This document shows, one piece after another, positions 1,487-62,794 of a stretch of 64,000 nucleotides of DNA. Made by a program: the position numbers and the translations under genes. Within the stretch, counting starts at the first letter, position 1, and each line of letters starts with the position of its first letter. Origin of the DNA: an uncultured Acidobacteriaceae bacterium (GTDB lineage: Bacteria; Acidobacteriota; Terriglobia; Terriglobales; Acidobacteriaceae); NCBI GenBank assembly GCA_963848515.1, contig CAWKEG010000021.1, forward strand, positions 29,591 through 93,590, in the 5' to 3' direction. The notes beneath the pieces were generated by a model. That model saw only the letters and a list, made by a program, of their open reading frames with translations, did no database searches and had not been told where the DNA came from.

Positions 1487-1762
1487 AATTAGTCCGCTGA
1501 ATGGACTTATGGGTCGGGAAGCTTTGGAAAATCTTCTAAACATTGAGGTTACGGGCAAAATCTTCTTAGCAAAGGGTTTGCGGCGATTTTCTGCCGGTTC
1601 TGCACCATTTCCGGTGCATTTCGTCCGTTATGATTCAGAAAGAATCCCATACTGCGATACTTCTAGGCGCTGTCTTCCCTCGCCGCGGCCTGTCTTTGAG
1701 CGGTGGAGGGGCCTGATCTACCTTTATTGTGCGCCGGGTGGGTGTAATTATCTGCAAACGGG
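1487..1762. repeat. Composite non-coding element, copy A (29-bp-period quasi-palindromic units plus a conserved 36-bp block)
   Basis: aaaatcttc-taaaca-ttgaggtta (1528-1551) and aaaatcttc-ttagca-aagggtttg (1557-1580); block 1726-1761 aligns with 62275-62310. Confidence 0.65.
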
Positions 1763-8586: not shown

Positions 8587-10941
8587 ATGACTGAACGTGG
8601 ACCGCTGTACGACCAGGATGAGACGCCGGAAGATGTGGCGACGCTCTATTCCTGGGCCAATCTGCACGGCGCCAAGTATCGCGATTTTTCTGCGTCGCGG
8701 GCGCAGACGCGGGAGAAGGCGCGGTTGCGCGTGCAGCAGGCGATAGACGAAGAGCAGGCGCGGGCGCAGCAGGCAGCGGGAGCGGAACAGCCGGCGGAAA
8801 TCAACAATCTTGCAGACGTGGAACGCGCGGCGGAGATGCGGCGTCTGGCCGAGCAGGCACGGGCGGCCGAACAGGCGCGCATTGAGGAATTGGCGGCGCA
8901 GCAGGCGGCACTTGAAGCAGCCCAGCAGGCGGCACGCGATGCAGCCGACAAGGCGGCGCGGGAAGCAGGCGAAGCGGCGGCACGTGAGGCAGCAGAGCAG
9001 AAGGCACGCGAAGCGGCGGCGGAAGCTGCGCGCCAGGCAGCAGAGCAGGCTGCGCAAAGAGCAGCGGAGCAGGCAGCGCGCGTGGCAGCAGAAGACGCGG
9101 CACGCCGGGCTGCGGAAGCGGCAGCGCAAAGAGCAGCGGAGCAGGCGGCGGCGCAGGAGGCCGCACAAAGAGCTGCGGAAGCGGCAGCGCGCCAGGCTGC
9201 AGAAGAAGCAACGCGCCGAGCGGCGCAGGAGGCGGCGGAGCGAGCGGCAGAAGAGATAGCTCGCCGGACCGCGCAGCTTGCAGCGCAACAGGCAGCGGAG
9301 AGAGAAGCAGAGCAGGCGGCACGCGTGGCGGCGGAAAAGGCCGCGCAACAATTGGCCGAGCAAAGACTGGCTGCGCAGAGAGCGGCGCAGGAGGCCCAGT
9401 TGCAGGCTACGCGACTGGCAGCGGAGAAGGCTGCGCAACAGTTGGCTGCGCAACGGGCAGCGCTGCAGGCGCAGGCGGCCAAGGACGCTGCTCAGCGGGT
9501 TGCTGAAGAGGCCGCTCGGCAGGCAGAGCAACAGGCTGCGCGGCAGGCCGCCGAACAGGCTGCACAGCAACGGGCCGCGCAACTTGCGGCGGAACAAGCT
9601 GCTCATGAAGCCGCAGAACAGGCAGCGCGCGAGGCAGCGGAACGGGAGGCGCAACTGGCCGCAGAGCTAGCGGCGCAAGAGGCGGCGGAACGAGTCGCGC
9701 TGGAAGCAGCGCAGCGGGAAGCGCAGCAAAGGGCTCATGCGGAGCGCCTGGCTGCCGCGATGGCTGCGGAGGCTGCGCGGGCGACCTCACAACCAGCCGC
9801 ACCTTACTCCCCGCCCAAGCGCGATTACGCTGGACGCGATTTCCCAGGACACGATTACCCAGGGCACGATTTTCCGGGCTATGTTCCTCCTCCGGCTCAT
9901 GCGCCAGTTGAGAGCCAGCCGCAGGCTTCGGCGAAACACGAAGACAGCTATGCGCTGCCGCGCAATCCATGGGCAGCAGGCGATCAAGGCGAACATGCGG
10001 GTCGTCCGGCCTGGTTGATGCCGGACCGCGCGGAAGCCGCGCCTCCGCCGCCCATGCCTCAGGCCCCTGAAGATACACTGCAGGGCTCGCGGGATCGGCT
10101 GGCTTCACGCTGGTATGCGTTGCGGGGAGTTTTTGAAGGAGCGGGTGCGCAGGCGGAGGCGGTTCCGGCTCCGGTGGCGGCGCGCGCTCCGGTGGTGGCC
10201 ATCTTCTCGCTGGCCGGCGGCGTTGGCAAGACCAGCCTGGTGGCAACGCTGGGACGGGCACTCTCGGCACGCGGGGAGCGGGTTCTGCTGGTGGATACGG
10301 CGCCTTACGGATTGCTGCCGTTCTTCTTTGGCGCGCGCGATCAGCGGCCGGGGTTGCTGAGGACCTTCAGCCCTCCGGGCAATAGCGGCGATGCACCGAT
10401 CCAGATGGTGACGATCGACCCAGAGGGATTGGGTCCGGACTCGGCGAACCAGGATGCGCTGTCGGGAGAGATCACGACGTATTCGCGCGGCGCGAGCCGC
10501 GTGATTGTGGATTTGGCGACGGCCTCGGGTGCAACGACGCGGCGGGTTTTGCGGCTGGCGCCGCTGGTGCTGGTGCCGCTCGTGCCGGACATGAATTCGG
10601 TGGTCAGCTTCAGTTCCATCGACAGCTTCTTTCAACACAATGGAAACGCTCAAGCTAAACCGCCGCTGCCGTTCTATGTGCTGAACCAGTTCGATCCTTC
10701 GCTTCCGCTGCACCTGGATATTCGTGAAGTGCTTCGCGAGCAGTTGGGCGACCGTCTGCTGCCGTTTGTTCTTCGCCGCACGCCGGCGGTGAGCGAGGCG
10801 CTGGCCGAGGGGATGACGGTGATGGACTACGCGCCCAACTCCACCGTAGCTGAGGATTTCGGCAGCCTTGCCGGATGGGTGAAGAGCCAATCGGCTGCCG
10901 CGAGCAGCACCTATCGCGGAGTGCGCTGGAGTGAACGATGA
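8587..10941 (+). CDS. bcsQ: Cellulose biosynthesis BcsQ (MinD/ParA-like ATPase) fused to a BcsR/BcsP-like N-terminus and a long Ala/Glu/Gln/Arg-rich linker
   Basis: Walker A SLAGGVGKTS, VIVDL and EALAEG in the C-terminal ~250 aa; N-terminal DVATLYSWANLHGAKYRDFS; ATGA overlap with bcsA. Confidence 0.85.
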   Translation: MTERGPLYDQDETPEDVATLYSWANLHGAKYRDFSASRAQTREKARLRVQQAIDEEQARAQQAAGAEQPAEINNLADVERAAEMRRLAEQARAAEQARIEELAAQQAALEAAQQAARDAADKAAREAGEAAAREAAEQKAREAAAEAARQAAEQAAQRAAEQAARVAAEDAARRAAEAAAQRAAEQAAAQEAAQRAAEAAARQAAEEATRRAAQEAAERAAEEIARRTAQLAAQQAAEREAEQAARVAAEKAAQQLAEQRLAAQRAAQEAQLQATRLAAEKAAQQLAAQRAALQAQAAKDAAQRVAEEAARQAEQQAARQAAEQAAQQRAAQLAAEQAAHEAAEQAAREAAEREAQLAAELAAQEAAERVALEAAQREAQQRAHAERLAAAMAAEAARATSQPAAPYSPPKRDYAGRDFPGHDYPGHDFPGYVPPPAHAPVESQPQASAKHEDSYALPRNPWAAGDQGEHAGRPAWLMPDRAEAAPPPPMPQAPEDTLQGSRDRLASRWYALRGVFEGAGAQAEAVPAPVAARAPVVAIFSLAGGVGKTSLVATLGRALSARGERVLLVDTAPYGLLPFFFGARDQRPGLLRTFSPPGNSGDAPIQMVTIDPEGLGPDSANQDALSGEITTYSRGASRVIVDLATASGATTRRVLRLAPLVLVPLVPDMNSVVSFSSIDSFFQHNGNAQAKPPLPFYVLNQFDPSLPLHLDIREVLREQLGDRLLPFVLRRTPAVSEALAEGMTVMDYAPNSTVAEDFGSLAGWVKSQSAAASSTYRGVRWSER
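8720..9785 (+). repeat. Coding low-complexity helical repeat (AAEQAARxA-like)
   Basis: ~350 codons of imperfect A-A-E/Q-Q/E-A-A-R/Q repeats; proline is absent after the first few residues. Confidence 0.9.
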
Positions 10942-16754: not shown

Positions 16755-19700
16755 GGGTTGGTTGCGGGACGGGGAGCAGGATTCTAGTTGCAGCGGGGTG
16801 CCTTTTGCTGGCGCTCCCGGTCGGTCTTGCTCAAAAGAAACCCGCCGCCGGCGCGCATGAGGGCGAACGGGGCACGCTGATTGACAAGGCGCGGGCGCTG
16901 GAGTCGCGGGGCCGGCCGGATATGGCCGTTCAACTTTGGCAGCAGATTCTGCTTTCGCAGCCCAACAATGCTGACGCACTCGCCGGCGTGGCCAAAGACT
17001 ATAAATTGATGGGCGAGGCGGACAAGGCTGACGCGGCACTGGATCGTCTGCGCAGGGTAAATCCCAACGACCCGAATATTGCCAAAATCGAGGCGCTGAG
17101 CAGCTCGAGCGCTCAGAGCGACGAGCTGCGCCACGCAGGCGAGCTGGCCAGGCAGGGCAGGGCCGATGAGGCGATGCAGATTTATCGGCAGTTGTACGGC
17201 GAACATCCGCCGGAAGGGCCAGTTGCGATTGCCTACTATCAAACGCTGTTTGGCACGGCCAACGGCAAAGCTGCGGCGATTGCGGGGATGAGATCGCTGG
17301 CCGATCGCAATCCGGGCGACGCGAGCACTGCGGTGGCGCTGGGCACGCTGCTGACTTACGACGCCAAGACCCGGCCCGAGGGAGTGCGCATTCTTGAGGC
17401 GCATCCGCAGGATGCCGATGCGCAGGCGGCGCTGCGGCAGGCGCTGATATGGGACTCGGCCAATCCGGCTTCCGCTGCGGAGTTGCGCCAATATTTGAAA
17501 GAGCATCCTCAGGATACGGAAGTTGCCGCAAACCTGAAGTCGAGCGAACGGAAGCTTGCGCAAATGAACTCGGGGATTGCGCGCACGCCGGCCGAGCGCG
17601 CGGCCTTTGCAGCGCTCAACGCGCACCGGTTGGAGGATGCGCAGCAGCGATTCGAGGCCTTGTTGCAGAAGGAGCCGAAGAACGGACGCGTTGCGGCGGG
17701 CATGGGATTTCTGCGCATGCAGCAGAAAGATTTTGGCGGCGCCATCAGTTATCTGACCGAAGCGCAGCAGGACGGCTACACGGCGAGAACGGTCGAGAAT
17801 GCGCTTACGACTTCGCGCTTCTGGTTCACGATGGCCGAGGCAACGCAGGCCTTCAACGAGAATCAACTGGTCGCGGCCGAAGCAAAGTACAAGACAGCGC
17901 TGGGCATGAATGCCCGCAGCGCCGAAGCGTTGAATGGATTGGCTGGCCTGCTGACCAAAGAGCAGAAGTATGCGCAGGCGGCGAGCGTCTACGAGCAATT
18001 GATCAAGGTGCAGCCCAATAATCTGGACGGATGGCGCGGAGTCTTTCTCTCCTATGCGCGCGACCACCAGTACCAGAAGGCTCTTTCGACGGCGGGGCGC
18101 TATCCGGCGCGGGTGAGACTGGCTTTGGCCAGGGATCCGGAGTACTTGAGCTCGCTGGCAAGCATCTATGAGGCGCAGGGGCGGAGCGCGGATGCCGAAC
18201 ACGTGTTGGCGCAGGCGCTGGCGCTGCCATTCCCCGACAACGGGACGAGCCTGAAGACGGATACAAAGCTGCAATACGCGGGCATCCTGATGGAGGCTAA
18301 ACGCTACGAGCAGGCCGCGGCGTTGTATACGCAAATACTCAACGAAGATCGAAACAACCTGTCGGCGTGGCTCGGCCTGGTGAGCGCGCATCACGGGCTG
18401 GGGCAGGATACGCTGGCCATCACGGACGTGCAGAAGATGCCTCCGGCGACGTACGAGGCCGCGCTGGGCGATGCGGGATTTCTATCGCTGCTGGGCGCAA
18501 TCTATCAGCAGGCCAATCAGCTTGAAGTGGCGCAAGGATTGCTGGAGCGGTCCGAGAAGCTGCAGACTGCGGCGGGCGGGCAGCCCAGCGTTGCGCTCGA
18601 ACTGCAGTTGGCCGGCATCTACCTGCTGCGCAATAACACCGCGCAGGCTTACGACATTTATAGCCGGGTGCTCAAAGCCAATCCCGGAAGTGCCGATGCG
18701 TGGAAGGGTTTGATTTCAACGCTGGCCGCGACCAACCGAAATGCGCAGGCGCTTGAAGAGATCGCGATGATTCCCGCGCCGGTGCGCAAGCAGCTTGAGA
18801 GCGATATTGAATTCGAGCAGACCGAGGCGGGCGTGTACGCCACAAGCGGCGATACGGCTCATGCCGTGGAATACATGAACCGCGTGCAGGCGCATTACGC
18901 GCGGCTCAAGATGCAGCCGCCGGCGAATGTAGACATCCAGAACGCGTGGCTGCTCTACAACACCGGCAACGACCGCGCTCTTTATCCTGCGCTGATGCGG
19001 CTGGGGAGCCGGAACGATCTCTCCGTCGCGCAGCGAGAGACGGTTCAGAACATCTGGGCCAACTGGAGCGTCCGCCGTGCCGCGGCGGCGATGGAGAACG
19101 GCAACATGCGTCGCGCGGTCGATATTTTGGATGCGGCTTCGCAGGCATTCCCAAACAACCTGACAGTGCGCAAGGCAGTGGCCGGTGGATTTGCGCGTGT
19201 GGGCCGCGCGAAGGAGTCGCTGGCGCTCTTCAAAGCGATTCCCATGCAGGATGCGAGCTCGGGCGATTTTCAAGGCGCGATTGGCGCGGCGCTGCAGGCA
19301 AACGACCGGAGCCAGGCTGAGTTGTGGTTGCGCCAGGCGCTGGAGCGGTTTCCGAACGACCCGGCGATTTTGTCGCTTGGGGCGCGTTACGAGCAGGCAC
19401 GCGGCGACAACGAGCGCGCTGCGGATTACTGGCGCGCGGCGCTGGCGGCCATGCCGGCGGCTACGCCCGTTGACAGGCTTGCGCACCAGTTGGCCTATCC
19501 CGAGCAGGATACAAAATCGCATCGCGCAGTAACGGCGGCCGATTTGCAGAACCTGCTCGATCCTGAGAACGAGCCTTTTGCGAAGACAACCAAGGTGCCG
19601 CCGCTGCCCGCATACGGGCCCGACCCTTATAACGGACCCGTGCCGGTAATGATCCCGCAGCCGCAGTCGTATGCGCCGCGGGCGGCAGACGCGGCGGGCA

Positions 19701-22700
19701 GAAACGCTTCTTCATCGAATGCCGGCCAGCCCGACGCGAATCCGCAGATCAAAGCGATTCCGTCGTCGCAGACGGCAAGTCCGCAACGGTTCCAGCAGCA
19801 GAGCGCGACGCGGATGGAAGCTGGAGATTCAGGTTGGAGCCAGGCGGGCTTTGGCGGATTGGTGGTTCGCGACGCGGTCTACCATCCGCAGGATCGAGTC
19901 TTGCGATTCGGTGCAACGGCGACGCCTCAGCGAGTTTATGACGCAAGCGGAGCAGCTTCGGCAGAGTTCGAACAAGCGCAGTATGCGAGCCAGGCAGACG
20001 TGCCGATCGCAGCGAACGCGCCGCATTCGATGGCATCCGACGCATGGAAGGGACTGGTCTTCTCGTTGATGGCGGGGAATCGCAACACAGAGGCGCTCGC
20101 AACGCTGAACAAGATTCCGCCGGATGTGCGTCGTCAACTGGAGAGCGATATCGAGTTTGTGCAGGGCGTCGCCAGCTTGTATGTGGCCGTGGGCGATGCG
20201 GCAATGGCGCGTGACTATTTGAACCGCGTGGAGAACTACTATCTGCTGCACCGGTCGGCTGCGCCGGCGGGTCTTGAAGTGCAACACGCGTGGCTGCTCT
20301 ATAACCTGAAGGATGACGTCTCTTTGTATCCGCTGATGCTGCGCCTGGATGCGCGCCCGGATTTGAGCGCGGCCGAGCGAGCGCAGTTGGATTCATTGTG
20401 GGCCACCTGGGCCGTGCGCCGTGCTGAGACTGCGATGAATGGAGGCAATCTTCTGCGCGGCGTGGAGATTTTGCAGGCTGCATCGAAGGATTACCCGGAC
20501 AATCTGGATGTGCGCAGAGCGGTGGCCGGTGCGTATGCACGAGTCGGGCGCGCTGCCGACGCGGTCACTCTTTTCAAAACGATTTCGATGGAGAACGCGA
20601 CCTCCGGCGATTACCAGGGAGCGATTTCGGCGGCTCTCGGCGCGACGGACATGGCGCAGGCCGAAGCCTGGTTGCGCCAGGCGTTGGCACGTTTCCCGAG
20701 CGATCCGAAGGTGCTGGGGCTTGCCGCACGATTCGAGCAGGCACGCGGCAACAATGAACGCGCCGCGGACTACTGGCGCGCTGCGCTGGCGACCATGCCT
20801 GCTGACTCGGCGGTCAAAAGTCTCGATAGCGGGCTCGGTTATCCGGCTGGATCGATCGCGCCCGCTGCGCCGGGAGACACAAAGCGATTGCTCGACCCGC
20901 GGCACGAGCCGGCAGCGAACAGTTTGCCGCCGTTGCCTGCCTATCCAACGGCTGATGCGAACCGTGCGCCGGTGGGCCTGGCCGGCCCACCCGCGGAATC
21001 CGCACCGCAGCATCAATGGCTCAACGCGCCGTCGAACGATCCACTGCCCATGCCTGGCGGGACGGGAGCGAACATTGTTCCGTTGCCGAATGCGCAGGGA
21101 ATCGCACCAGTGTACTCTCCGCAAAACGCGCAACAAGGAACGTCGGTGGCGCAGCCGGTGTTGATCCAGCAGAGTTGGACGCACCTGGTGACGACATGGC
21201 CGGAGGTGAGTGCAACTCATAGACGGAAGAAGGCTCATCGGCATCCTTCGACGTATGGCGCTTCGGCGCGGACACGGTCCGCTGCTAGAGCCAGGACCGC
21301 TGCGAGGGCCCGCGCCGCCGCAAGAGGACGAACGACGCTGCGTGCCAGGGCTGCATCCGGTACGCGAATGGCGCCGAGTGCAAGGACAGCCGCGAGTCCC
21401 CATCGTTATGCAGGCACGGTGAAGCTGCCGCCCTCGGAGCAGACCATCGCTTCGACGGAGGCGACAGTTGCAGCGCCAGGATTGCGGATCGCATCCGCGC
21501 CCATGGGACCGCTGGCAGCGCAGGTAAACGCCCGGTTTGCCGAAGAGACCGACAGCCAATTGACGCAGGGTTCGGCCGCGGTCATTCACACGCTGGCGAA
21601 TGCGCCGGTTAATGCGCAAATCCAGATGGGCGCGGCGCAGGTTCCGGCTGCTGCGACCGACGGTCAATACACGCAGGCGCAATATACGCCGTCTGCCCAG
21701 GAAGCAGCCACGGGCGCCTATTCGGTGCCGAGAAAACCTGCTGAAACCACGCCCGAGAAGCCTGCCGCGTCGACGCCGCGGACGTATGCGCATAAGAAAA
21801 CCCGTAAAAAAAGCAAACGAGCAATGCAGCAGGCCAGCCAGCCAACGAACGCGACGCTGGGCAATACGCCCGCACTGAGCAACGCACCGCAGACGCCTGC
21901 GGCTGAAAACGCGCAGCAGAACCAAACCTACGATGCGCAGTCTCCCGCGCCAACCTCAACGGGCGGGGGTTTGTCCGACGAGGAACTGGAGCAGAGGAAT
22001 CTGCCTCCGCTGCGCGGGCCATGGGTGCGCGTGCAGCGCGAGCCCAAACCCGTCAGTCCGCGTGAAGAGGCGGAGATGCAGTTGCGCACCATCGAGAGCG
22101 GCTACAGCGGCTGGCTCGGCGGCACGGGCTACATCAACTACCGCAGCGGCGCGCTGGGCTTTGACCACTTGTCGGCGCTTGAGTCACCGTTTGAAGCGTC
22201 CGCACCACTCGGGTACAACGGCCGGGTCACCCTTGTGGTCAAGCCCGTGTTCCTGGACTCCGGTCAGGCCGACGGCAGCGCGACGATCTCGGTAACGCAG
22301 TCGACGACGGGCGGCAATCAACTGGTTTCCATTCCCGAGCCCATCGGCACCCTGACCACGACCGACGTTAACCCGCCGGCGCAGCAAAACGCGGTCGGCT
22401 TTGGCGGCGAGGTGCAACTTGCGTTTCCTCACGCGGCAATTGCCGGCGGATACACACCGTACGGATTCCTGGTTTCGACCTTCACGGCTCGCGGCATGTT
22501 CCGGCCTGGCAACGGGCCCGTCACCATCACTGTCGCGCGCGACTCAGTCAAAGACAGCCAGCTCTCTTACAGCGGACTGCGCGACCCGGCGGGCGACACG
22601 CTTGGCAACCAGGGACAGATCTGGGGCGGCGTAGTTGCCAACCAGGGCAACGTGCAATTCTCGCGCGGCGACGCGATGTCTGGGTTCTACGTGGGCGCGG

Positions 22701-30223: not shown

Positions 30224-30310
30224 GGCAGGGAATAGGGAATAGGGAATAGGGAATACGAAGAGTGATTCAGGGCAGGGAACGGAAATCGGGGATCAGGGAT
30301 CAGGGAGGAG
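30224..30310. repeat. Degenerate 7-bp tandem array
   Basis: (agggaat)x4 then agggaac, ggggatc, agggatc. Confidence 0.85.
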
Positions 30311-30475
30311 GGACCGAGGGACTCGGGGAGGATTCCTCGGTAGCCAGAGTCCGCGTCGGTTCTATGGGCTTCATACGGGGTAAATGCCTGGCCTACCGCA
30401 CGGACAGCAGTTCTTCCGCAGCGGGTGCGTTGGGCGTGACGGTCATCCGTGCAGCACGTTCTGAAGGTCCGAACA

Positions 30476-34722: not shown

Positions 34723-34808
34723 GAACAGAGGACAGAGCGCAGAGAGCAGCGAACAGCGAACAAGGAACAGGGAACAGGGAACAGGGAGCAAGGATCAGGG
34801 AACGGGGA
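34723..34808. repeat. Degenerate 7-bp tandem array (~12 units)
   Basis: ...agcgaac agcgaac aaggaac agggaac agggaac agggagc aaggatc agggaac. Confidence 0.85.
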
Positions 34809-35513: not shown

Positions 35514-35518
35514 GTCAG

Positions 35519-35634
35519 CCTCTAGCTGCTAGCTTCTAGCCGCTAGCTCCGGTGCTTCAGCAATTCTAATTCCGTGACCACGCGATGCAAATGCGCAGCC
35601 GGGAAAAAAGCTAGAAGCTAGAAGCTAGAAGCTG
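35519..35634. repeat. Two inversely oriented degenerate 7-bp arrays
   Basis: tctagct gctagct tctagcc gctagct (35521-35548) and (agctaga)x3 (35610-35630). Confidence 0.75.
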
Positions 35635-61893: not shown

Positions 61894-62137
61894 GCTTTTC
61901 TCCGAGTACAGATGGATAAGACGGACTCGCGGTGCGTGCGCGGGCTTGATTGGATTCTCTCAGACCGGGGTGACGGGTAGGTGAAAGAGGGCGGCACCGG
62001 GGTGAGGTTAGGCGTCGCAGGCGCATACGCGGGGCAGGGGCAGGGGCGATACGGCGGCGTTGGGGGGGGCAAAAAAAATTCTGGACTTTTTGAGGAAGTT
62101 CCTGCGGTGCAACAGGATACGCGGTGGTCGCTGTTCT

Positions 62138-62310
62138 TAAGTCGTCTTTAAATTGAAGTTATGGGTAGAGTCCTCTCAGCAAAGGAGTTAGGGGCAGTGG
62201 ACAGTGGGCAGTGGACGGTGGTCAGTTGTCAGTGGTCGGCTTCTGGCTTCCGGTGAAGGATGCACTCTGAAGTCATTGTGCATCAAATGGGGGAAATTAT
62301 ATGCAAAGGG
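62138..62310. repeat. Composite non-coding element, copy B
   Basis: taagtcgtc-tttaaa-ttgaagtta and agagtcctc-tcagca-aaggagtta at 29-bp period; 36-bp block 62275-62310 matches 1726-1761 at 27/36. Confidence 0.65.
62192..62240. repeat. Degenerate 7-bp tandem array
   Basis: cagtgga cagtggg cagtgga cggtggt cagttgt cagtggt. Confidence 0.8.
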
Positions 62311-62404
62311 CAGACGCTGGTTAAGTGTCTCATTTTGAATGGGATGAAGAAGGGGCTGCCTCAACTTTATTTGACACCGAGTTTGTGCTGGTCAGGTTTG
62401 GTTT

Positions 62405-62480
62405 TCGGCAGAGGAATCCTACGCTGAAGACTACGCTGGCGGTGATGAGGGCGCTGGGGATCGGGCTGACAGTCAGGGTT
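62405..62480 (+). pseudogene. Remnant of an addiction-module antidote HTH protein
   Basis: RNPTLKTTLAVMRALGIGLTV resembles the C-terminus of HI1420-type antidotes; the N-terminal part is not recognisable. Confidence 0.5.
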
Positions 62481-62794
62481 CAGCGGGCGGGTTGGCGGCT
62501 GAGGGTTTCGCGGGCGAAGGTGATGCGCAGGCGGGTTCGGGTGGCTTTGGCGAAGCGCTCAAGCGTACGGGTTGAGGGGAGGACTTTGCCGCTTTCGAGG
62601 CGGGCGATCACGGCCTGAGTGGTTCCCATAGCCTTGGCGACCTGCTCCTGGGTCATGTCGGCGTCGGCACGGGCCTTGATCATTGCGGATGCGAGGGCGA
62701 ACTCTTCTTCGAGCGCGTTGTAGGCGGCAACATACTTGGGGTCCTTCTTCCACTTCTTGAAGGAGTCTTCGACGGGGATGAAATTGGTTTTCAT
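62480..62794 (-). CDS. Xre/HigA-type HTH antitoxin
   Basis: RADADMTQEQVAKAMGTTQAVIARLESG; ATGA overlap with the toxin. Confidence 0.9.
   Translation of the reverse strand: MKTNFIPVEDSFKKWKKDPKYVAAYNALEEEFALASAMIKARADADMTQEQVAKAMGTTQAVIARLESGKVLPSTRTLERFAKATRTRLRITFARETLSRQPAR

Follow-up and report, generated by a model that had tools for sequence, protein, structure and literature searches.

The window analysed here, a 64,000-nt stretch of contig CAWKEG010000021.1 from an uncultured Acidobacteriaceae bacterium, carries two copies of a composite intergenic element, copy A near its left end and copy B near its right end, with type II toxin–antitoxin (TA) genes (MazE/PIN and HigB/HTH) lying beyond them. 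Each copy comprises block 1, made of two tandem 29-nt units, and block 2 (B2), and to the left of copy A lies the gene of an orphan protein of 157 aa. The features are as follows.

964-1437, - strand: ORF, gene of the orphan Cys/His-rich 157-aa protein
1452-1483, + strand: G7-TA-C5 palindrome followed by a T-run, a terminator-like match; left boundary of copy A
1487-1515, + strand: a third, degenerate unit (unit 0) preceding the two 29-nt units of block 1; the sequence reads aaattagtccgctgaatggacttatgggt
1528-1585, + strand: block 1 of copy A, two tandem 29-nt units; HMM match 1525-1583, E=2e-13; 23 homologues aligned
1717-1761, + strand: B2 of copy A, core 1726-1758 = ATTGTGCGCCGGGTGGGTGTAATTATCTGCAAA; HMM E=5.6e-13
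62062-62091, + strand: motif at the left end of copy B, eight G (G8) followed by the palindrome A8-TTCTGGAC-T5, as read from the sequence
62138-62195, + strand: block 1 of copy B, two tandem 29-nt units; HMM match 62135-62195, E=2.2e-14
62195-62239, + strand: heptamer-type tandem repeats (CAGTGGA-like) between block 1 and B2 of copy B, as read from the sequence
62265-62311, + strand: B2 of copy B, core 62275-62307 = ATTGTGCATCAAATGGGGGAAATTATATGCAAA; HMM E=5.8e-11

The two copies have the same order on the same strand and are homologous over both blocks. When intergenic region A was compared with the whole window by blastn, its sole partner was copy B, with 35/47 identical positions over block 1 (E=1.2e-4) and 27/36 over B2 (E=0.03); IUPAC patterns from both copies, with up to 3 mismatches allowed, found no third copy in the window. 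Chance similarity is ruled out by these matches together with hundreds of external copies. The preliminary description of this DNA had placed two composite copies at these positions, and the blocks are confirmed there, with family members found outside the window; its exact 29-bp period holds as well (unit starts 1528 and 1557 in copy A, 62138 and 62167 in copy B), as do its unrelated spacers between the blocks, ~140 nt in copy A and 79 nt in copy B. The 36-bp block that it delimited, with 27/36 identities, is real but too narrow, the conserved core being wider (~1717-1761 and 62265-62311), and the “antidote remnant” that it saw beside copy B, ORF 62325-62618, has no Pfam match.

Several of the smaller features recur elsewhere. 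The palindrome at 1452-1483 immediately precedes the 157-aa gene's Shine-Dalgarno sequence and ATG, and its GGGTACCCCC motif is also found at the left edge of loci L002, L069, L037, L125, and L134; sequences like unit 0 are present in L082, L069, L037, and L125. Locus L053 belongs to the same subfamily as the left-end motif of copy B, for which similar contigs occur in metagenomes X2–X4. The heptamers at 62195-62239 differ in copy number among metagenome strains (X2 and X3 contain joints of the “goes back 40/43” kind), and arrays of this type flank B2 in many loci.

A profile scan of further genomes had been proposed with the preliminary description, and the B2 pattern ATTGTGCGCC-R9-TAATTATCTGCAAA indeed recovers 27 genome loci from MAGs of Acidobacteriaceae/Terracidiphilus, plus at least 120 in metagenomes, with up to 6 B2 copies per MAG; nearly all carriers of the genome loci are labelled Acidobacteriaceae or Terracidiphilus, and one bin is labelled Actinomycetes. 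The dispersed composite non-coding element is genuine, and copies A and B are members of a large modular family of non-coding intergenic DNA in Terracidiphilus-like Acidobacteriaceae. A keyword search of the literature for a description of the element found nothing relevant.

B2 is the sole universal part of the family, and several subfamilies have it alone in common. It is an asymmetric core of 33–45 nt consisting of cATG..ATTGTGCGCC, nine mostly purine bases, and TAATTATCTGCAAA. The search pattern itself dictated the left box ATTGTGCG and the right box AATTATnTGCAA, and because the patterns used to retrieve B2 loci fixed 19–23 bases, conservation at those bases is partly by construction; among the free positions of the family-wide profile, C8–C9, which adjoin the left box, are conserved, and the R-rich linker is variable. 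A near-invariant asymmetric site of 33 nt exceeds the size of a typical operator. Metagenome contigs pile up 5- to 10-fold precisely on 1723-1759 with unrelated flanks on both sides, and in the profile the sequence 3' of B2 is not conserved family-wide. Non-coding DNA always surrounds B2 unequally, reaching ~330 nt to one side and ~175 nt to the other. B2 copies are spaced from 133 nt to 60 kb apart, a second B2-like match is present in 6 loci, and 6/6 of these pairs are on the same strand; the B2 HMM found no inverted pair in 1.07 Mb covering 148 loci.

The long side of B2 is occupied by several alternative modules, one of which is block 1. A strict block-1 pattern gave 0 matches in a first genome scan because it was too strict, and the block-1 HMM gives 25 matches in 1.07 Mb, every one of which is followed by a B2 on its own strand at a distance of 32–170 nt; the unit consensus is AAAaTCnTC-N4-5-CAwwGrAGTTAyGGG. 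Over the 450 nt upstream of B2, TCTGCAA boxes reach an enrichment of 7-fold on the + strand and 4-fold on the - strand, with no enrichment downstream, and TAATTATCTGCAAGG repeats in tandem 75–85-nt units. With this anatomy the element is a modular dispersed intergenic repeat of the BOX/BIME kind. It resembles pneumococcal BOX (boxA-boxB(n)-boxC), enterobacterial BIME/REP, ERIC, and Neisseria Correia sequences in being non-coding and strictly intergenic, with tens of copies per genome, and in being a mosaic of modules with a variable number of short tandem units, in which subfamilies have one conserved module in common; possible promoter and protein-binding activity would be a further likeness. 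Unlike Correia elements and ERIC, it has no terminal inverted repeats, and it also lacks a REP-type palindrome. Unlike repeats of the BOX/BIME type, it keeps one asymmetric 33-nt core across a family-level clade, its orientation tracks the replication strand, and when complete it goes with one particular small protein gene.

The block-1 units had been described as 9-6-9 quasi-palindromes and likened to the core of a tyrosine-recombinase site (dif/att), in which inverted arms of ~9–11 bp surround a centre of 6–8 bp. Neither the palindromes nor the core with its 6-bp spacer survives comparison of 23 homologues: the arms, as read from the window sequence, are only 2-5/9 complementary in register, and their pairing is not kept among the homologues, paired cells amount to 74.6% as against 74.1% in shuffles, without excess covariation, and 4/13 candidate pairs are unpaired in 10–17 of the 23 sequences. 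These palindromes had been part of a larger proposal, that the element is a recombination or gene-capture site recruiting TA cassettes, which we now consider most improbable. In its favour, both window copies and L012 have a TA pair ~173–176 nt beyond B2 on its downstream side, but ~150–195 nt is the common gap between B2 and the next gene, whichever gene follows. The TA linkage itself dissolves on tabulation of flanking genes: TA genes neighbour B2 at background frequency, at 1/27 independent loci (L012), with no enrichment (the outcome that, as regards TA genes, the preliminary description had named as refuting it), and the neighbours are mostly core metabolic and other diverse housekeeping genes (TGT, TIM, KARI, citrate synthase, a tRNA synthetase). 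No Pfam family occurs more than twice among the 90 ORFs within 1.5 kb of B2 at the 27 independent genome loci, no recombinase or integrase is among the 25 Pfam families listed (133 matched) for neighbour ORFs, and no transposase enrichment was found among B2 neighbours. The variable-content junctions that had been anticipated are represented by one case (L151 against L152), in which strains do differ near an element, though at ~230 nt past B2, within a different repeat and not at the element edge. No joints were found at the blocks in four metagenomes. Tabulation of flanking genes thus largely refutes gene capture. We also rejected an integron attC site, an imperfect palindrome (R''-L''...L'-R') that ends in GTTRRRY and stands in cassette arrays: the element has no palindrome, its GTTAyGGG misfits RRRY by eye, and its copies are solitary and bound no cassettes.

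All copies are intergenic, and their placement relative to genes follows chance, with B2 lying between divergent genes in 27 cases, between convergent genes in 26 (25% of copies), and among co-directional genes in 49. Such random placement, convergent regions included, is unusual for transcriptional operators and would suit a selfish or mobile element equally. B2 orientation tracks the replication strand and not the neighbouring genes: the B2 motif strand is the G-rich (replication-skew) strand in 83/107 loci (p=9e-9), a 78% agreement between B2 polarity and the sign of local skew, which is an imperfect proxy for fork direction. Skew near B2 is equal for genes on either strand (+0.062 and +0.068), and in the window 7/8 blocks have positive local skew.

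We find no sign that the element encodes protein. The window copies look protein-like by eye (K/R, I/V, third positions), yet no frame is open across copies, which led us to drop a coding or pseudogene origin; the median open length across B2 is 75–215 nt over the six frames, and blocks 1 and 2 of copy B, as read from the sequence, lie in different frames. The ncRNA cassette suggested earlier likewise finds no backing, there being neither an Rfam family nor locus-specific complementarity. Searched against Rfam with both the gathering and an E-value threshold, the window and 34 loci gave no match on the elements (the sole matches, a tRNA and one borderline hit, are off them), fold z-scores of the elements are ordinary, and duplexes of the variable part of B2 with its flanks have the same energies as permuted controls. 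In the six-copy CAWHLO alignment, pairs are invariant or repeat-derived only; G-U-containing + strand stems of the units had seemed possible, and were rejected because their left halves vary without compensation. Type III TA RNA repeats (ToxI-like), which form a tandem array directly upstream of a ToxN/AbiQ-type toxin gene, were rejected on the grounds that the neighbouring TA genes are type II and that most copies have no TA neighbour.

These results bear on the proposal, unlikely in our view, that B2 is a specialised promoter launching short or leader transcripts, or else an RNA element. On the + strand it would offer a TTGATT-like -35, a 17-nt spacer, and AATTAT as the -10, or on the - strand GATAAT as the -10; block 1 would serve as an upstream activator site or, on the - strand, would belong to a long 5' leader that precedes the 157-aa gene and carries anti-Shine-Dalgarno-like UAACUCCUUUG motifs. 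The AT box is indeed the best -10-like sequence on both strands, and a consensus scan returned a single site, a TTAACC-17-TATAAT match on the - strand of copy B. The + strand shows an enrichment of terminator-like hairpins immediately ahead of B2 and at the left edge, the - strand has almost none, and the replication co-orientation described above is typical of strongly transcribed units. A sigma-70 promoter has TTGnnn at -35, TAnnnT at -10 with 17±1 bp between them, and a transcript start 6–8 nt downstream, but TTG stands at the -35 position in only 33/148 copies, and the “spacer” GTGCGCC and “start” CTGCAAA exceed in conservation what promoter hexamers would require; the lack of orientation preference toward flanking genes, the quarter of copies between convergent genes, and the unconserved sequence downstream of B2 also speak against a promoter. 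Transcript evidence comes from metatranscriptome X11, where a single locus was informative and neither L117 nor L030 is represented. There, an RNA contig begins at G28 of one B2 and reaches 155 nt into the downstream + strand gene, and no RNA contig lies over the 470 nt inside that element; however, the RNA 5' end is 3 nt after the -10 box, too near for a sigma-70 start, and three other RNA contigs span B2. The contig that starts at the 3' edge of B2, with the three that span it, leaves some room for a role as RNA, as does one subfamily with a hairpin of varying sequence and T-rich loop after B2 (stems by eye), to be set against the absence of an Rfam family and of hairpin covariation in block 1 or with the variable part of B2.

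A sigma-54 promoter with an upstream activator was rejected. As at sigma-54/Qrr sRNA promoters, tandem upstream repeats lie 80–215 nt from a conserved downstream box, and B2 contains GG-N10-GC in many copies. Sigma-54 promoters have a near-invariant GG at -24 and GC at -12, N10 apart, whereas in B2 the -24 GG is only 62% (G16) and 73% (G17) conserved, in a G-run that the search left free, and copy A has GT; the AATTAT between “-24” and “-12” is more conserved than those positions. Unlike at sigma-54 promoters, there is also no conserved transcript and no orientation to genes.

The product of the 157-aa gene has an N-terminus of the form CRHIMPNGxRCHSPAL..YCYFH and a C-terminus with a CxxC cluster, and the Cys/His clusters are conserved among homologues, which form 112 clusters. 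The protein has no match in Pfam, PHROG, or PDB sequences and no significant NCBIfam match, and its AlphaFold model (pLDDT 74) has no Foldseek match and no recognisable DNA-binding fold. We sampled 8 homologue loci, at which the proteins are 41–61% identical and the neighbours unrelated: block 1 lies upstream of the gene in 7/8 and B2 in 6/8, in a fixed geometry that, counted from the ATG, puts B2 at -214 to -320 and the core of block 1 at -97 to -137. The gene is on the C-rich strand in 9/9 loci. That the boxes are still recognisable while the protein has diverged to this extent suggests constraint on the DNA sequence. The complete composite makes up the conserved DNA upstream of the genes of an orphan family of small Cys/His-rich proteins. 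Together with gene 964-1437, copy A forms one such complete unit; copy B is an orphan that lacks the gene, with no trace of the 157-aa family to its left, and L125 keeps a 23-aa remnant of the gene. Only ~5% of B2 loci have the gene. We had also read the loci that share it (winA, L013, L025, L140, and L045) as an orthologous locus at which the element is kept, and dropped this because the shared gene is part of the unit and not an independent host marker.

Gene and element together may be a small autonomous transposable module (B2, repeats, block 1, promoter, 157-aa gene), with B2 as a conserved cis-acting end, gene-less copies such as copy B as MITE-like non-autonomous derivatives, and the strand bias produced by a single-strand or replication-coupled mechanism, as for IS200/IS605 and PATE elements. 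We regard this as possible but doubtful. Consistent with it are the random placement and orientation of the copies relative to genes, all in intergenic DNA; the excess of gene-less over gene-bearing copies (~140 to 7); the L125 remnant; subfamilies with only B2 in common; the 72–79% identity of copies within one genome; the unrelated contexts of 157-aa homologues that nearly always keep block 1 and usually B2; and the strand bias relative to GC skew. As with IS200/IS605 and PATE, the unit is ~0.8–0.9 kb long (964-1761, to which a right-hand arm may be added) and contains a single gene of ~150 aa, a size similar to that of IS200 TnpA; it lacks inverted repeats and has palindromes near its left end, many gene-less derivatives, and a replication-relative orientation bias. 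Unlike in IS200/IS605, however, the protein has no Y1/HUH or other transposase signature (no Pfam match in a library that includes PF01797, and no fold match), its gene lies opposite the G-rich “top” strand, and no defined ends, target site, target duplication, or empty sites were found. Four soil metagenomes (X1–X4) yielded no precise presence/absence or excision joints at the elements. Against mobility there is also the better conservation of B2 than of the 157-aa protein, atypical of IS ends, the position of B2 inside the non-coding tract and not at its edge (~175 nt of non-coding DNA lies beyond it), and the age of the copies, which in one genome are old and diverged, with no near-identical recent ones found. 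A full-length IS with B2 ends, or a MITE with terminal inverted repeats, was rejected, as no inverted partner exists in the 148 loci. The non-autonomous mobile element of the preliminary description stays a live rival.

Our preferred reading, to which we would give a probability of roughly one in three, is that the element works at the level of DNA, as an array of boxes that are bound by protein and in which orientation matters, rather than as structured RNA, as coding DNA, or as the core of a recombinase site. TCTGCAA-type boxes, GTGCGCC, and AAGGAGTTA units would be arranged around an AT-rich promoter-like TAATTAT box, and the likeliest ligand would be the adjacent zinc-finger-like 157-aa protein, which may act as an autoregulator where the unit is complete and elsewhere may sit on the orphan sites. 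A regulon-like version of this reading needs action in trans, since only so small a share of B2 loci have the gene.

A further reading, which we hold to be quite unlikely, builds on replication polarity: B2 may be the recognition site of a new replication-direction-sensitive system, either a Ter-like polar barrier or pause site bound by the 157-aa protein or the end of a new replication-coupled mobile element in which that protein would be a transposase of a new type. Like the sites of Tus-Ter in E. coli and RTP-Ter in Bacillus subtilis, which are asymmetric, 23–33 bp long, and present in roughly ten or more copies, B2 has a polarity fixed relative to replication direction, at the level of skew agreement given above. 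The tus gene lies beside TerB and rtp beside TerI/II, each site in the gene's own promoter region, and the 157-aa gene similarly adjoins a site that its product may bind. The 157-aa protein resembles Tus and RTP in neither sequence nor fold, and unlike Ter sites, B2 copies lie as little as 133 nt and up to 60 kb apart, each accompanied by a further ~300 nt of repeats.

Acidobacteriaceae count among the most abundant bacteria of soil and peat, and to our knowledge almost nothing is known of their non-coding genome. A near-invariant asymmetric 33-nt motif that is carried on hundreds of environmental contigs, is absent from Rfam, is oriented by replication strand, and is linked to an orphan Cys/His-rich protein family gives a handle on what may be a novel DNA-binding protein with sites across the genome, and on a possible replication- or single-strand-coupled process in the phylum; the tempting link to TA capture is corrected. 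In fragmented MAGs, B2 may also serve as a marker of the leading and lagging strands.

Two copies of a composite intergenic element lie in the window, and the sequence there bears out the positions that a preliminary description had assigned them. The features concerned are as follows.

964-1437, divergent from copy A: ORF for a 157-aa protein
1487-1515: further degenerate 29-nt unit, the third of copy A
1528-1585, + strand: block 1 of copy A, two tandem 29-nt units
1726-1758, + strand: block 2 core (B2, 33 nt) of copy A
62138-62195, + strand: block 1 of copy B
62275-62307, + strand: B2 of copy B
62325-62618, + strand: ORF once read as an antidote remnant

The intergenic region of copy A (1438-1931), searched against the whole 64-kb window, matched copy B and nothing else, with no third copy found; 35 of 47 positions are identical in block 1 (E=1.2e-4) and 27 of 36 in block 2 (E=0.03), and the blocks keep the same order and strand. 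Both copies keep the 29-bp period exactly, as had been described. The 9-6-9 quasi-palindromes read into these units are weak, with in-register complementarity at just 2-5 of 9 positions. A conserved hairpin or inverted repeat was rejected, as across an alignment of 23 block-1 homologues 74.6% of cells in the two proposed stems are paired, compared to 74.1% in shuffled controls, and four of the pairs are mostly unpaired.

The source organism comes from a soil metagenome, and contigs of four soil metagenomes pile up on copy A 5-10-fold exactly at 1723-1759, with unrelated flanks on both sides. A block-2 pattern search of GTDB species representatives gave 27 loci, nearly all in Acidobacteriaceae/Terracidiphilus MAGs (at most six copies in one MAG), and a second pattern that leaves the G-run unfixed gave at least 120 loci, a lower bound, in peat, bog and soil metagenomes. 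The B2 consensus is cATG..(ttg)ATTGTGCGCC, then nine mostly purine bases with GGG at the end, then TAATTATCTGCAAA. A block-1 HMM found 25 matches on both strands of 1.07 Mb, all of them 32-170 nt upstream of a same-strand B2; the dispersed composite element proposed earlier is therefore real.

Block 1 is present at only ∼15% of B2 loci, the remainder having other upstream modules: a ∼350-380 nt type (six copies in MAG CAWHLO, 72-79% identical), a long type containing GTTGATTTCAAAsGGGTTAnAAATAATCTGCAAGG and the palindrome TATACCCC..GGGGTATA, and arrays in which TAATTATCTGCAAGG, the B2 right half, recurs every 75-85 nt. Heptamer tandem repeats adjoin B2 at many loci (e.g. L026, L017, and L003); the types CAGGGAT, CAGGGAA, CAGTGGA, and CTAGCTN are common in the intergenic DNA of these genomes, often abutting B2, and arrays occur in the window at 917-957, 30273-30313, 34733-34808, 35516-35634, and 62195-62239. 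The last, in copy B, varies in copy number among metagenome strains (joints that go back 40/43). Two loci have a second, diverged B2 (L014, 3021-3065; L027, 2471-2512, minus strand) that keeps the orientation of the main copy, lies 1.3-1.5 kb away from it and carries GGCCGG or TGAGGG in place of the G-run; an additional TAATTCTCTGCAAA half-site and a G-run/TA/C-run motif come before each. Downstream of B2, k-mers such as GGATGGGGCACCCG are enriched. A 39-nt motif ∼110 nt downstream of B2 in L117 (13943-13981) recurs in several metatranscriptome contigs with differing flanks (depth up to 17.8) and appears to be another dispersed, transcribed repeat.

The element had also been read as a toxin–antitoxin (TA) capture site or recombinase site. 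TA genes do stand beside both copies, as guessed: a MazE/AbrB-type antitoxin and PIN toxin after copy A, and a Gp49/HigB toxin and HTH antitoxin after copy B. No Pfam family turns up more than twice in the 90 ORFs that lie up to 1.5 kb from B2 at the 27 genome loci; TGT, triose-phosphate isomerase, ribBA, KARI, citrate synthase, and a tRNA synthetase are among the neighbours. Only one of these independent loci, L012, is TA-adjacent, and the B2-to-TA-gene gap, ∼174 nt, is a common distance to the next gene of whatever kind; the capture or recombinase-site reading is essentially refuted. In L012 two pairs stand directly downstream of B2 (552-2054): the toxin TumE is paired with a member of the HVO_A0114 family, and a PIN toxin with a partner of 95 aa. 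The supposed antidote remnant has no Pfam match and its HTH-like C-terminal string went unconfirmed; the gene for the HTH antitoxin, on the opposite strand, overlaps it with its 3′ end.

Linked to the element is the 157-aa gene. Its product belongs to a family of 112 clusters, which Terracidiphilus records name only "hypothetical", with a conserved N-terminal CRHIMPNGxRCHSPAL..YCYFH, a helical middle, and a C-terminal Cys cluster. Searches of Pfam, NCBIfam, PHROG, and PDB gave no significant match for the protein, and its moderate AlphaFold model (pLDDT 74) has no fold neighbour. Among eight homologues (41-61% identity) the neighbouring genes differ at every locus (ABC transporter, GlmS, GidA, flagellin, TonB, and others), while block 1 lies upstream of seven and B2 of six. 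The complete unit has a fixed order: gene, G-run/TA/C-run hairpin, promoter-like sequence (proximal, resembling TTGAAA-N16-CAGAAT, on the strand of the gene; identified by eye), block-1 core (-97 to -137 relative to the ATG), heptamer repeats, and B2 (-214 to -320). The gene is on the C-rich strand in 9/9 loci. It is present at just 7 of ∼150 B2 loci and 3 of 25 block-1 loci, plus one 23-aa remnant (L125). With the gene beside copy A and no trace of it at copy B, the former is a complete unit and the latter an orphan.

Several gene copies per genome, some decaying, are suggested by a degraded or frameshifted paralogue (cluster P0073) and by P0030, a truncated copy with 91% identity to the window protein, apparently on the same contig (length 54,164). 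Flagellar genes (FliS, FliD, flagellin, FlgK, FlgM) lie a few kb from two homologues (L149, 5536-6483; L156, 3579-6495), probably by coincidence because the other six contexts are unrelated. Contigs L151 and L152 are identical in the 157-aa protein, the element and the genes downstream (GlmS, epimerase) and diverge completely ∼230 nt past B2, on the side away from the 157-aa gene, inside the palindromic repeat GGGCACCC / CCCCGGTCCC..GGGGACCGGGG; the junction marks a strain-level rearrangement, sited in a different repeat family.

At ∼100 loci with genes called on both sides, B2 lies between divergent genes in 27, convergent in 26, and co-directional in 49, matching random placement. On one side of B2 the non-coding gap varies little (median 331 nt, IQR 274-416), and on the other it is ∼175 nt; the element is therefore a self-contained ∼0.5-kb unit rather than a promoter serving its neighbours. 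GC skew, measured more than 500-700 nt from the element, is positive on the motif strand in 83/107 loci (p=9e-9, mean +0.063) and alike in genes of either strand (+0.062 and +0.068), and is therefore of the replication type, not a coding-strand effect. Element orientation thus follows the chromosome: the window, with both copies on the + strand, has a skew of +0.106, and in CAWHLO copies separated by 1.9 Mb of a single contig differ in orientation. Strand bias relative to replication characterises single-strand transposons, IS200/IS605 among them, a likeness that, with the random placement, the excess of orphans, and the differing contexts of the 157-aa gene, makes a mobile module with gene-less non-autonomous derivatives the main rival reading; we rate it a tentative possibility, as no defined ends, empty sites, or recent copies were found, nor a transposase signature in the 157-aa protein. 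A TIR-type IS or MITE was rejected, with no inverted B2 partner found and second copies always direct. A further reading, quite unlikely, is that of a polar site like Ter, bound by a dedicated protein, or of a small replication-coupled transposon of a new kind.

The TCTGCAA box occurs in B2, in the tandem modules upstream, and, in inverted form, where block-1 units join, with 7-fold and 4-fold enrichment upstream of B2; also recurrent are a GTGCGCC box, AAGGAGTTA unit cores, and an AT-rich, near-palindromic TAATTA box. These boxes are asymmetric, conserved as sequence rather than pairing, and more conserved than the adjacent protein, and we therefore favour, at a probability of about 0.35, an orientation-dependent array of putative protein-binding boxes acting on DNA. 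Such an array would have promoter-like activity; its most economical ligand, the adjacent zinc-finger-like protein, would autoregulate its own gene at complete units and bind orphan sites. We infer both the binding and its consequence.

A promoter or RNA element is unlikely, though the AT box and one RNA 5′ end are consistent with it. That end is in a wetland metatranscriptome (X11), where an RNA contig at L062 opens with G28 of the second B2 (6604) and extends into the + strand gene that follows, with no RNA contig covering 470 nt inside the element; since depth is low and contigs are fragmented, an RNA start at B2 is suggestive only. Three further RNA contigs run across a B2 into flanking sequence on either side, and none of the RNA runs searched contains the window. 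On the + strand, terminator-like hairpins show enrichment immediately ahead of B2 and at the left edge. Single-sequence folds were unremarkable, and the B2 variable stretch has no locus-specific complementarity to its own flanks on either strand. Known RNAs (no Rfam match on elements in the window and 34 loci), coding sequence (no open frame kept across B2), and a sigma-54 promoter ("-24 GG" conserved at just 62% and 73%; GT in copy A) were likewise rejected. A match to the Vibrio antisense RNA AS9 in an acidobacterial MAG (L013, 1956-2055, minus strand; 52.4 against a gathering score of 50) is probably spurious.

As Rfam holds no family for it and a literature keyword search found nothing relevant, the element is an undescribed modular dispersed intergenic repeat, unusual in its near-invariant asymmetric core throughout a family-level clade, its replication-strand polarity, and its linkage to an orphan protein family. 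Elsewhere in the window, GC-rich repeats of 12/24-nt period (GCNGCNSARGAG-like, 16-19 copies in each family) form a long array at 8892-9802 that looks like a repetitive Ala/Glu/Gln-rich coding region, and a 300-nt direct repeat (19055-19354 and 20399-20698, 68% identity, 1344 nt apart) probably represents tandem paralogous genes.
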